Positions 2,295 through 54,830 of a stretch of 64,000 nucleotides of DNA are shown one piece after another (the stretch's first letter is position 1; every line of letters starts with the position of its first letter). The notes beneath the pieces are model-generated. The model had not been told where the DNA came from and searched no databases. It was given only the letters and a program-made list of their open reading frames with translations. A program made the translations under genes and the position numbers. Location of the stretch: NCBI RefSeq assembly GCF_006345805.1, contig NC_043000.1:135284001-135348000 (forward strand), read 5' to 3'. The DNA comes from Octopus sinensis. Taxonomy: Eukaryota.

Positions 2295-2542
2295 TGGCAC
2301 TTGTGCCGGTGACATGTGTAAAAACATTCGAGCGAGGTTGTTGCCAGTACCGCCTGACTGGCATGGGGGCCAGTCAGGCGTCAGTGGTTGACGTTAGGAA
2401 GGACATCCAGCTGTAGAAACTCTGCCAGATCAAGACTAGAGCCTGGTGCAGCCATCTGGTTCGCCAGCCCTCAGTCAAATCGTCCAATCATGCTAGCATT
2501 GAAAGCGGACGTTAAACGATGATGATGATGATGATGATGATG
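2295..2542 (+). mobile_element. Retroposon fragment with (GAT)n tail (RTE-type tail); related pieces at 2008-2140 and 7459-7830
   Basis: Internal gccagtgccgcctgactggcac repeats and gttaggaagg(g)catccagctgtagaaac; ends ggacgttaaacgatgatgat. Same motifs recur at 7459-7830 in both orientations. Confidence 0.6.
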
Positions 2543-10899: not shown

Positions 10900-12566
10900 C
10901 CATGTTTTCCCCGAAAATAAGCCCTACCATAATTTTTCAGCATGTTTTTAATATAAACCCTACCCCGAATATAAGACCTAGTCAAAATGTATCAGCTTCT
11001 TAGCAAGACCGTGTGATGTTTGTAAAATAAATCAACTACCGCAGCTTGGCTAAAGTCCGCGCTAAGCGCGCATGCACGGAGTTGACTCCCTTGTCTTCCA
11101 GGAAAGATGAGTGCAAAAAGAAAGAGTTATTCCGTGGAGTACAAGAAAGGAATTGTGGAAGAGTTACTTAACAAGAATCTTACGGCTTTCTGTAAGATGG
11201 ATCGCCAAATGGTTCGAAAATGGCGAGCAGAGTACAATAATCTCAGCAGACTGGTGGATGAGGGAAGTGCAAGTGTGGACCAGGTCGACAACCGTTACTT
11301 TTGGAGCTGGAAGATATCACCTCGGAATAGATTACTAACAGACAAACAAAGGTTTTGGTTGTACGCAGAGCTGGTATTCAAGAATTTGCTCCTGCAATGA
11401 CACTACAGTTGGATATACCCCCAAACATAGTCAAAGCATCGCCTCATTGGTTGGATAACTTTCTTCGACGATATGAGCTCTCTCTAAGAAGATCGATAAT
11501 ACTGTTCAAACTGGAGGATGCTGAAGTGATTCAACGTGCACTTGCATTCATGTCCTTCATTGATGGTATCGACTTTTCTAGATACAATCTCACCAATATA
11601 AATGCTGCAGATGAGACTACAATATTTATGGGCCAAGGATCTAAAACGACAATTGAACAGACAGGTGCCTCGCTAATCTAAGATGCCTCAACGGGTTACG
11701 AAAGTGCAAGAGTTACTTGTATTTTATTAATTCTTCTTGATGGAACAAAAGTCCCACAGCTTATCACAAAGGGCATAAAAACTAAAACAGAACGAGTTTT
11801 GGGCATTTATATCGTTGAAACGGAAAAGGCTTGGTGCACACAAGCTGTTATAAGAAAATGGGTTTGATTTAACTATGCCACTTGTTTTACGTAGTTCTCA
11901 AGAGGTCTTTTCGTCTGGGACTCGACCAGTGCTTATCGCGTAAAAGATATGAAAACCTTCCTTTCTGAAAGAAGAATTGACCACATAATGATTCCCGCAG
12001 GAATGACTTCATATCTACTAACATTAGATCTCGTAATAAACAAGACCTTCAAGGATTATTTTCGGATGGAAGTGAATGAATATATCGAACATAGAATGGA
12101 GAGAAATCAGCGTGGAAACTTTGTCAAACCCAACCTCCAAGAGGTCGTGAACTGGGTGAAGAATGCATGGAATAAAATTACCGACAGTTGCGTTGCCAAT
12201 GCATTACGAGCAGGGTACTTCGTTTAAGGAAAGTTATATTGCCAAATATGTGAGATTGAGGTCTATGATTCTACAGGAATTTTGCAAGAAATTCAGTCTG
12301 AAGTTCGGGGTTTGATGATTTGTAATGATGTTCCAGAAGAGGACGAAATGGTTATACTTGACTAAAAACACAAACAAATAAACTTTTGATAACTAAAAAC
12401 ATGAGTTTCCTTTTTACAATTTTTTTCTTTTTACACGAGGACATGAGACTTTTTTGTCTTGGGTTTTTTCCGCAAATATATAAGACATCTCTCGAAAATA
12501 AGCCCTAGTGTATTTTTTGGATGTAGAATTGATATAAGACAGGGTCTTATTTTCGGGGAAACACGG
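10900..12566 (+). mobile_element. pogo-family DNA transposon (POGK/Tc2-like), full length but disrupted
   Basis: TIRs ccatgttttccccgaaaataag / cttattttcggggaaacacgg with TA on both sides. Broken transposase 11107-12360: MSAKRKSYSVEYK, KASPHWLDNFLRRYELSLRR (CENP-B-type HTH), NAADET, VWDS, IPAGMTSYLLTLDLVINKTFK (DDE_1-type). Confidence 0.9.
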
Positions 12567-12776: not shown

Positions 12777-12780
<4 letters not shown>

Positions 12781-13627
12781 GTTTATATATTTGTTGTGCA
12801 AGATTTTTTATGTGAAGTCGTTTCGGAATGGTCAAGAAGCATAGGCGAGCGGGTAAATGAACATTGGAGAGAACTCAAGGAAGGTAAAAGCTCATCGATT
12901 CTGTACCAACACGCCGAACAGGAACACGGGGGATCAATCAACAACATAGAAATTAAAATATTGTCCAGACATAGAACAGATGCAACAATCAGACAAATTA
13001 CAGAAGCTACACACATAATAGAAAATAAACCTAGCCTGAATAGGAAACTAGAAGGGAACACTAGCACACACCACAACATATGACGGTAGAGGATCCCAAT
13101 AAACTGATTACAATATAAACAAAACCGAAAACATAATAAATAAAATACACAGATAAATAAACAAATAGAAATAAATAACTATATAAGTTTTTTTTAATCT
13201 AAAAGATTTTTTTGATTTATTATTATTATTACTAGTATTGTTGTTATACATACATACATACATATATACAAGCATATGTAATGATAATGATAAGTGGATG
13301 TAAACACATGAACAAAATAAGAAGAAACAAAAACAGCAAAAACAAATTACATGAACGTATATAAACAGAAGATACAAATATAACAGGCATCCACCCCACA
13401 CACACACTAAATAAACATAGACGCACATAGGGATATAAGCATGCGCAAATGAAGACATACAATAGAAATACAAAATGCCTGACGGTTAGTAACGAGAGAC
13501 ACAAATAAGAAAGAAGAAAACAAAGGACCACTGATGCGGTCACAGGAGTGTGACGAAAGAACTCTGGCCGAAATAAAATTAAGATTAATGTAACAAAATA
13601 AATAACACTGAAGCAAAATAACACCAA
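12777..13627 (+). mobile_element. 3' end of a Penelope-like retroelement (GIY-YIG remnant plus pseudo-LTR) inside (TA)n
   Basis: ORF 12796-13083 SEWSRSIGERVNEH...SILYQH...IRQITEATHIIENKPSLNR fits the PLE GIY-YIG C-terminal half. Followed by an A/C-rich UTR, a hammerhead motif and AATAAA (13572). Confidence 0.8.
13526..13569 (+). ncRNA. Minimal type-I hammerhead ribozyme motif (A9 replaced by C)
   Basis: gacca-CTGATGC-g-gtcaca-ggag-tgtgac-GAAAG-aa-CTC-tggcc; 6-bp stem II, 4/5-bp stem I, predicted cut after C13564. Confidence 0.7.
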
Positions 13628-13684
13628 ATATATAGTGCGTGTGTTTTTATTGGCTAAACTGGCAAAATGACCATTCCGAAATAT

Positions 13685-13736
<52 letters not shown>

Positions 13737-18475: not shown

Positions 18476-18765
18476 CAGACAGATAAAGATAATGTGTGTG
18501 TATTTGTGTGAATGTGTGTGTGTGTATGTGTGTGTACGTGCATTTACGTATACAAGTATATATATATACAATGGAGCAAACCATAAAACAATACAAGAAC
18601 TACAACACAACAAATGCGTTGAACACTGGACTTATTTCAAATACAGACCCATATACAAATTACATGAATGAAATCGAATCTATACTAACTATCCTTTCAC
18701 TTGTTTCAGCCAGAGGTTATAACCAAGCTGAAACATCCTGCTTGGTGTAATTTATTGTTTATTTC

Positions 18766-19039
18766 GATTCACTTCAACATTTAAGTTTAATTTGTCAAAA
18801 TATTTTCGTCGCTTTGAGACCGCGACCTGTTCACTGGCAAAAACCCGTGTTGTCAGTGAACAGGTCGCGGCCTTAAAGCGACGAAAATATTTTGACAAAT
18901 TAAACTTAAATGTTGAAGTGAATCGAACGGCTTTTGTGTGTTTCTTAAATGGCTTACAAACACCTTCCACGCTGCAATTGTTTTCGTTCCAGCACACGAT
19001 CTCAGATCAAATCACTTACTATGCAAGTACATCTCCGTA
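18766..19039. mobile_element. Short element with inverted pseudo-LTR-like duplication (78-bp arms) carrying two hammerhead motifs
   Basis: Arms 18763-18840 and 18850-18927 (3 mismatches, 9-nt spacer); candidate 12-bp TSD attgtttatttc at 18754-18765 and 19040-19051. Confidence 0.7.
18850..18898 (+). ncRNA. Minimal type-I hammerhead variant with G3:C8 core (mirror copy on - at 18792-18840)
   Basis: ttgtca-GTGAACA-g-gtcgc-ggccttaaa-gcgac-GAAAA-ta-TTT-tgacaa: 6-bp stem I, 5-bp stem II, self-complementary stem III. Confidence 0.65.
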
Positions 19040-19752
19040 ATTGTTTATTTCATTTCATTTTTACGGCCCCCTCTCTGTTTCTTTGTCAATGAGGGAGTTG
19101 GACAACACCTTCACCATATGCGTTTCTTGCCGTGATGTTGGTTCATCTCATATAAATTTTTGTGTTAGTGATTTTGAATACATCCGCATCTACGCCTTGT
19201 AGATCACCGAGGAAATAGAGCCTCAGTTATTTTTGGTCTCACCCAGTAGGTCATCTGTTGCATTGGAGTAACCTGCTAGGTGTAACAACGATGGATTGCC
19301 TCCAGTATTTGACGCTATTCGGTAATCACAATTACAGGTACGTAGCAATCCAGGTGACTGAGTAAACCAAGATGGTCTACTTTTCTTTTATTCTGAATGA
19401 TATCAGAATCCAATCAGTCAGTCACCTGCATATTGCAATGTGCACACGGAATGATGCATCTCTTCTCCTATGGATTCCCAGATAAAACATTAATTGTGAG
19501 TCTGGGATTACAATAATCCTGACCTTGTGCATCCCGATTGCAACCTGTTTGTGGGGTGACAGCAAAGCACAAATTTCCCCGTGAAACTATATGATGCCTT
19601 TTTCAACCCACTTGTATTATTTCTCTCAGGTCTTTCTGTTGCTTTGCATTATCATCAGAGGTTTTGACTGATTGTGATACTTTGTCAATGTAACTAGTGG
19701 TAGTGACTAATGATAGTGAATTTGTATCCTTAAAGTATCTAGTGGTATGACT

Positions 19753-48565: not shown

Positions 48566-48676
48566 AATGCTTACAGCACCTAGGTTTCCCAAGCGGTCAC
48601 CCATCTAAGTACTAACTAGGCTCGATGTTGCTTAACTTCGGTGATCGGACGAGAACCGGTGCTTTCAACGTGATAT
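48566..48676 (-). pseudogene. 5S rRNA copy lacking roughly its first 10 nt
   Basis: Minus strand atatcacgttgaaagcaccggttctcgtccgatcaccgaagttaagcaacatcgagcctagttagtacttagatgggtgaccgcttgggaaacctaggtgctgtaagcatt, then T5 (48562-48558). The 5' strand of helix I is replaced by AT-rich sequence. Confidence 0.92.
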
Positions 48677-49210
48677 AATATACTGGTGAAGGAGCAACAA
48701 AAACGATTGTTACTGTTCTTACGCTTCCAGTTAACAAATGAGATGAATATGTATCACAATATATTGGTTGATCCTTATTCTCCTGTTGAGCTGAATCTTC
48801 AACACATTCTAAACGACTTCCAGGAAAAATGAACGTTATAACTTGCTATGTACTCACTCATTAAAAAATACTGCTTTTGCGTCCATTCAGAATACTGCAA
48901 TATAGGAAGCTACGAAGGCTATGTAATATAGTGGAGAATAGTGGATGATGCAGCCGATTCTGGATGTCTGTTGACTTATTGAGAGCCTGGCTGAATACCT
49001 TTGTTTTCACGTAATAAGTCAACTAACATATCAAATCTATAGAACGAAGTGAGCTCGCGGACGTTGAGTTTTAAACCTCATTGTTACGGATTATAAGAGT
49101 AGTAGTGACAACTATTAACTGCATTTCTCAGGTTCAGGTCCGTCACACTATTATGAATAGCTATCTTCTCTCGATATTGATTTAGAGACCAGTTGAGGGA
49201 TTTAAAATAC

Positions 49211-54546: not shown

Positions 54547-54830
54547 ATGATAAATCTCAGAGCGAGAAAAAGTATATGTATTTGTGAAGGGAGCTGACTT
54601 CTCGTCGACAACCATGATGTCACACGCTGATGAAAGGTAAACACCTTGAAACTCGGGTCCGTGTGTATCATGAGTTGAAGACGGGGAGGATGACTCCCCT
54701 TCACAAATACTGAGAGGACACAGATAGTGTGTCTATAGCCAGCTGGAGGAGATATCTTCGTGGGGCTACAAACTACAGTAGCATCCACCCTTAGGGGTTA
54801 GCCATATTCAAATAACAAATATGCGTCACG
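54547..54830 (+). mobile_element. (TA)n-embedded ~285-bp element carrying a canonical hammerhead ribozyme
   Basis: Complex, more GC-rich island bounded on both sides by (TA)n. Confidence 0.7.
54613..54672 (+). ncRNA. Type-I hammerhead ribozyme, canonical core, GUC cleavage site
   Basis: catgatg-t-cacacg-CTGATGA-aaggt-aaac-acctt-GAAAC-tcgg-GTC-cgtgtg-tatcatg: 13-bp bulged stem I, 5-bp stem II, short stem III; cut after C54659. Confidence 0.88.

Follow-up and report, generated by a model that had tools for sequence, protein, structure and literature searches.

The palindrome at positions 18763–18927 of the window, by which we mean the entire 64,000-nucleotide stretch of Octopus sinensis DNA analyzed here, is an ordinary by-product of the insertion of a Penelope-like element (PLE), a retrotransposon. 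Judged from its sequence, it is an ordinary inverted PLE leader insertion, with a predicted hammerhead whose natural G3:C8 variant is family-wide and backed by covariation in sister families. We consider it probable that the unit is a short PLE insertion with two head-to-head copies of the 5′ leader set in a 12-bp duplication, and that the minimal G3:C8 hammerhead of this leader cuts only slowly, either as a dimer or with the help of the element's protein. A hammerhead fold with the swapped pair would likely still cut weakly.

The insertion in the window and its hammerhead fold

The inverted repeat consists of two arms of 78 nt each (18763–18840 and 18850–18927), which are 96% complementary and differ at three paired positions (18853/18837, 18871/18819 and 18874/18816). 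The 9-nt "spacer" between the arms is a further part of the inverted copy, and the shared repeat sequence extends to about 19042, such that the whole unit is a PLE insertion spanning 18763–19042 (Table 1). The flanking 12-bp duplication, ATTGTTTATTTC, which an earlier note on this DNA had put forward as a candidate, is indeed present on both sides. The ORF portion of the window copy stops at the commonest 3′ end of the family, about +93 from the ATG, and the motif is a genomic repeat with at least 56 matches (40 of 127 candidates scored).

Table 1. Components of the PLE insertion and the comparator copy in the window
Feature	Position	Strand	Remarks
Target duplication, left 12-bp copy	18754–18765		microhomology, the final 3 nt being shared with the inverted arm's end
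PLE 5′ leader, inverted copy, 87 nt	18763–18849	−	stops 21 nt short of the start codon
Inverted-arm hammerhead fold (predicted)	within 18763–18849	−	G3 18834, U17 18798, stem I mismatch 18837
Inverted-arm loop II allele	within 18763–18849	−	GGTCTCAAA
Minimal type I hammerhead fold (predicted)	18850–18898	+	predicted cut after U17 18892
Right-arm stem I	18850–18855/18893–18898	+	
Right-arm core	G3 18856, C8 18861, A9 18862, inserted G 18863	+	
Right-arm stem II	18864–18868/18878–18882	+	
Right-arm GAAA	18883–18886	+	
Right-arm stem III	18886–18891	+	palindromic
Right-arm loop II allele	within 18850–18898	+	GGCCTTAAA
Remaining PLE 5′ leader	18899–18948	+	common to genomic copies
PLE ORF, first 31 codons (MAYKHLPR...)	18949–19042	+	ATT microhomology with target
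Target duplication, right 12-bp copy	19040–19051		
Family B PLE, separate 5′-truncated copy	12778–13690	+	canonical-pair comparator
Family B GIY-YIG C-terminus	12778–13083	+	
Family B hammerhead fold	about 13528–13567	+	C3:G8 with C9

The earlier note had read each arm as a minimal type I hammerhead with a GUGAACA core that fails to match the consensus CUGANGA. The core is as described, and the right arm sustains the reading: stems I and II enclose the core, the G10.1–C11.1 pair and a Watson–Crick 3:8 pair are present, U4, G5, A6, A9, GAAA, U16.1 and H17 are all in place, and the predicted fold has a z-score of −2.39. It also contains an extra G between A9 and stem II that had been overlooked. 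The left arm does not sustain it, as the difference at 18837 produces a C–A mismatch, the proposed stem I is absent from the predicted fold and the z-score is +0.14. The 10-nt palindrome offered as stem III likewise has to be redrawn, since it takes in A13, A14, U17 and U1.1; the functional stem III is the 6-nt AAUAUU (15.1–16.1), which is palindromic and made up entirely of A–U pairs. The predicted stability of the fold is modest (z −1.3 to −2.4), the 6-bp dimer helix contributes −0.2 kcal/mol, and two strands folded together are predicted to adopt a structure other than the hammerhead dimer.

A strict descriptor specifying any Watson–Crick 3:8 pair, A9, a stem I of at least 6 and a stem II of at least 5 pairs gave no match on either strand of 40 dinucleotide-shuffled versions of the window. 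Rfam at its gathering thresholds reports no hammerhead in the window, the sole match being a 5S rRNA (48568–48683, minus strand, 87.9 bits). The earlier note had predicted that standard searches would miss the motif; the silence of Rfam, however, is not specific to the swap because two C3:G8 folds in the window, at 13531 and 54627, are missed too. The second of these is a canonical type I fold with a CUGAUGA core, a 6-bp stem I and a 5-bp stem II, which occupies 54621–54665 on the plus strand within a short element that has (TA)n tracts on either side. Fragmented frames at 11086–12227 (plus strand) presumably resemble a pogo/DDE-type transposase.

The parent element and its protein

The parent elements were reached by walking upstream through other genomic copies. 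In full-length elements, the gene coding for a telomerase-like RT with a GIY-YIG domain has the motif at either end, in line with the earlier suggestion of an inverted PLE pseudo-LTR insertion; the adjacent PLE ORFs that the earlier note proposed to look for are found as RT/GIY-YIG frames at loci L192 and L095. L192 is a full partial-tandem element with cores at 2065 and 6426, i.e., 4361 nt apart, and the intervening ORF, which has one frameshift, opens with the same 31 codons that are present in the window. L095 offers an unbroken frame of 1042 codons with RT motifs, a CX3CxxC linker and a GIY-YIG/CCHH region. The model of the protein has a pLDDT of 90.6, and its top three fold matches are telomerase RTs. 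Pfam yields no match for the element's protein and recovers RVT_1 in 2 of 12 aligned relatives (best E 0.0027), and a single-sequence PDB search with the protein gave no matches. A protein search recovered 83 homologues. The protein of the sister family B is 97–98% identical to an Octopus vulgaris protein (name as given by NCBI).

The motifs and fold matches point to a PLE with a single ORF combining a telomerase-like RT with a GIY-YIG at its C-terminus, and the copies show a pseudo-LTR partial tandem with the hammerhead and the ORF start, an inverted 5′ copy, a tail and a target duplication. By comparison with the motifs in the available text of Craig et al. 2021 (PMC8557442), the CX2-5CxxC linker and CCHH motif are those of the Neptune/Nematis clade. 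By these sequence motifs, and with a tree built without named references, we provisionally assign the element as an endonuclease-bearing PLE of the Neptune/Nematis type. The likeness to such PLEs, as described in PMC8557442, covers the RT, the linker and the GIY-YIG with CCHH and extends to (TA)n-rich targets, inverted 5′ copies and a tail at a single end; unlike in other PLEs in that account, the octopus protein has DKS where the motif reads DKG. We also considered a non-LTR retrozyme, i.e., non-coding units in head-to-tail tandem, and rejected it: the window copy is head-to-head and belongs to a coding PLE, with direct tandems occurring in only a few loci (e.g., L020).

At L196:3198–6790 (plus strand), an LTR-retrotransposon-like insert with gag, protease, RT and integrase-like frames splits a copy of the PLE seen in the window. 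In four runs, the summed contig depth on the leader (L192:2020–2600) is thousands of times that on the ORF body, an excess that fits a large surplus of short over full-length copies. Contig ends on the leader form no pile in the four contig sets, and assembled contigs are of a kind that cannot show cleavage or expression.

The 3:8 pair across copies and sister families

G3:C8 is the state of the family. Exact-pattern counts across the genome give 3607 G3:C8 cores, along with 127 copies with a broken G3–G8 pair and 84 copies with G3 facing U8 (64) or A8 (20). A looser pattern yields 90 non-G3 copies (49 A, 24 U and 17 C), none of which combines C3 with G8. Within this genome, at least, the variant is not the rarity it had been taken for. 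In a set of 60 copies selected independently of the core, with duplicated loci among the rows, 54 have G3:C8 and four G3–G8. None of the 41 fixed hammerhead positions is polymorphic in this set, whereas 5 of the 8 loop II positions (p 2.9e-5) and, in a weak contrast, 15 of 160 elsewhere (p 0.044) are. Conservation of the core among other copies, one of the points named in the earlier note as bearing on its case, is observed.

The G3–G8 copies are spread across several loop II types, the broken pair also occurs in two older full-length copies, within their 5′ repeat, and in most inverted pairs that carry the change it is confined to one arm. As they outnumber the C8U and C8A copies and have this distribution, a broken 3:8 pair can evidently spread. 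C8G is about six times as frequent as C8A and twice as frequent as C8U (sites include L193:6697 and L195:7051, both on the minus strand), and about 15 of these copies are clustered on contig C20. Enrichment of dead cores through escape from cutting was considered and dropped, since C8G alone is in excess and not C8A, C8U or changes of G3.

Two sister families, B and C, were recovered by a further protein search and then fetched. Family B has C3:G8, with C9 in nearly all copies fetched and A9 in L043. The older family C (L224, L225, L232, L233, L040 and L023) has U3:A8, compensated stems and a 4-nt palindromic stem III. A quick tree, unrooted with respect to the order of the 3:8 changes, places the family of the window (family A) in a single clade with B and C (SH-aLRT 99). 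Among 14 metagenome loci, many of them too short, the fold was recovered in two, L236 (U3:A8) and L239 (C3:G8), and not found in the other 12. The L236 copy (2493–2534, plus strand) belongs to a related PLE on a metagenome contig and pairs U3:A8 with C9. In families A, B and C as well as in L236 and L239, the hammerhead fold follows the ORF, within the 3′ repeat region, with differing stem sequences.

As C3:G8 and U3:A8 each occur within the same predicted fold in a sister PLE family of this genome, the 3:8 covariation is, on this sequence comparison, natural, and the earlier proposal of a natural covariant hammerhead is upheld. In an alignment of six rows from five families, two of them from the family of the window and with stem I misaligned for family C, positions 3 and 8 are paired in every row (CG 2, GC 2, UA 2), with a covariation score of 0.719 that none of 500 shuffles reached. 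U4, G5, A6, G12, A13, A14, A15.1 and U16.1 are invariant in all six rows. Hammerhead folds, canonical except for one with U3:A8, were also seen in other repeat families (L220:7496 and L229:8935, both on the plus strand, and L227).

The octopus fold closely resembles the minimal type I hammerheads of metazoan PLEs described by Cervera and de la Pena 2014 (PMC4209133). The shared features are the location in the pseudo-LTR, the extra nucleotide that separates position 9 from 10.1, G10.1–C11.1, the palindromic stem III, a frequent U17, pairs on opposite strands and thousands of truncated copies. The core pair differs, being G3:C8 here and a natural U3–A8 there, and in the available material of that study G is absent from position 3 in all 56 rows of Fig. 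S3. Natural covariation at 3:8 was also described, as U3–A8 only, in the accessible text of Perreault et al. 2011 (PMC3088659). Engineered C3G/G8C changes partly restore cleavage of a PLE hammerhead in the account of Frangieh et al. 2024 (PMC11167929) and give a partial rescue in that of PMC8495972, and a G3–C8 test variant is mentioned in PMC3884650. Neither a natural G3:C8 pair nor an octopus PLE hammerhead was found in the literature searched, which does not include the principal survey of variants (Lünse et al.), and these motifs are absent from the supplement of PMC8557442. The accessible parts of PMC6765202, PMC6466107 and bioRxiv 10.64898/2026.07.22.740005 provide context only.

Insertion, cleavage and alternative readings

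The ends of the copies bear on how they arose. Of 126 arms, 101 have their 3′ ends at two sites, about +33 or +93 from the ATG, while the 5′ ends cluster at AGATG, 22–23 nt upstream of G3; the arms in the window end short of it. AGATG occurs without upstream sequence in 32 of the 126 arms, 18 of which have a G just before it. Genome-wide, the non-templated base before AGATG is G in 385 cases versus A in 76, in a count that left out C and T, which can be templated. This extra G is, from its position and frequency, likely cap-derived, a copied cap being known as an extra 5′ G in L1, with cap-independent terminal addition by the RT as a possible alternative; a literature search at the level of listings returned no cap-derived G in PLEs. 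A splice acceptor at the 5′ boundary was rejected, as the second base upstream of AGATG varies (A 11, T 9, C 8 and G 4; n = 32), and there is therefore no shared upstream exon. The templates were copied across the hammerhead uncut. In a count aimed at copies that begin at the cut site, 170 of 175 keep the upstream half, a figure set aside as biased by the choice of loci with core or upstream queries.

Inverted pairs number 31 in the 90 loci examined. Non-simple duplications of at least 8 bp, a few of them AT-rich and repeat-like, flank 19 of the 31 (control 0 of 31). Exactly one arm ends at +86 to +94 in 27 of the 31 pairs, and both arms do so in none, as against about six expected if they were independent; 18 pairs combine the long end with one at +27 to +38. 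With respect to loop II alleles, the two arms are the same in 14 pairs, differ between two common alleles in seven (including the window) and differ otherwise in eight, two being unscored. Four pairs join 8-nt and 9-nt loop II types, two of these within clean duplications of 13 and 15 bp. Where the loops are of equal length, they are no more divergent than the next 30 nt (14 of 211 versus 35 of 810, p 0.20), which, like the 14 pairs with a shared allele, speaks against two templates. Taken as sequences, the copies suggest that capped RNAs were copied uncut on each of the two target strands, with two RNAs serving in some cases. We regard priming on both target strands as likely and two templates in some insertion events as plausible; gene conversion or a nested second insertion could also account for the mixed arms.

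Accordingly phrased as a model, the RNA would begin at AGATG, 22–23 nt before G3, and would be capped. The PLE protein would nick AT-rich DNA and initiate reverse transcription within the ORF, near +93 for one of the target strands and, for the other, near +33 or at a microhomology. The two copies would extend to the 5′ end of the RNA across the uncut hammerhead and would then be joined head to head, the two arms in some events deriving from two different RNAs. A cut after U17 would take off about 60 nt of leader together with the cap, and cutting would therefore be a slow off-switch or late processing rather than a requirement for insertion. A bolder version, in which we place little confidence, has a PLE protein dimer integrating two capped RNAs, one per target strand from two start sites, to give the head-to-head palindromes. 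The same dimer would pair the hammerheads via stem III, and G3:C8 would slow cutting until after reverse transcription.

A close parallel is PAc, a Poseidon element of the green anole, whose hammerhead cleaves only with the protein and is dispensable for insertion in vitro according to the available text of PMC11167929. In that account, as in our reading here, two internal RT start sites in the 5′ end of the ORF give a tail, ATT is found at the target, the RNA template is uncut, and both strands are cut and extended. Unlike in PAc, where the swap was engineered, it is natural in the octopus element, whose putative start sites lie at about +33 and +93 with a tail of about 58 nt and whose hammerhead is entirely upstream of the ATG. 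Unlike that of Poseidon, the octopus protein has a Cys linker. An extra 5′ G and arms from two templates were not found in the accessible account of PAc.

The most serious competitor to slow cutting, though on balance an unlikely one, is a descendant of a PLE hammerhead that no longer cuts, its fold being kept in the leader as a protein-binding, promoter-proximal or translation element. It would accommodate templates copied uncut from the 5′ end, the 127 G3–G8 copies, the very weak stem III, the normal insertion of hammerhead mutants in vitro (PMC11167929, available text) and the Naiad elements described without canonical hammerheads (PMC8557442, likewise). However, it leaves unaccounted for the maintenance of 3:8, a feature of the active fold, as three different Watson–Crick pairs across related families with covarying stems, as well as the eight invariant positions in the six-row alignment. 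That the likeness to a hammerhead is mere chance in an AT-rich repeat we consider scarcely credible: the missing Rfam match and modest folding z-scores are what one would see, but the shuffles gave no strict match and the sister families, L236 and L239 carry the fold behind the ORF with different stem sequences, making chance unlikely. Hardly more credible is a functional unit of twin outward hammerheads cutting transcripts of both strands. Both cores are intact, but the left stem I is broken and the two arms of a read-through RNA are predicted to pair into a single long hairpin (−124.6 kcal/mol) hiding both folds. With its arms on opposite strands and 31 inverted pairs among 90 loci, the layout is common in the family and has been described for PLEs (in the accessible texts of PMC4209133, PMC8557442 and PMC3846280); that it matters for the ribozyme is not supported.

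As for the inversion itself, two-strand priming differs from the antisense self-priming proposed, in the available text of PMC3846280, for such inversions. Fold-back or self-priming on a single template (e.g., antisense RNA) is in our estimate a minority prospect. It would fit the shared loop allele in 14 of 31 pairs, against a random expectation of about 14%, and the short self-complementary stretches at many junctions. Conversely, the 5′ ends of both arms lie at the sense-strand start, often with an extra G, and at the duplication the two arms have separate 3′ ends, never both at +93. Arms of different subfamilies within one duplication also speak against it, though conversion or a nested second insertion could produce such arms too. 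We accordingly favor two-strand priming on uncut leader RNAs with a hammerhead that would cut slowly.

If the predicted cutting is true, these elements would be a natural case, at high copy number, of a core swap for which the literature searched offers only engineered rescues. CUGANGA-based screens would then undercount PLE hammerheads, and some "hammerhead-less" elements would need re-examination. The G:C, C:G and U:A pairs in three sister families constitute a natural series. Further, the copy population bears on two open questions regarding PLEs, namely the role of the hammerhead and the origin of the inverted 5′ copies, and points to a capped, uncut sense RNA, with priming on both target strands and, at times, from two RNAs.
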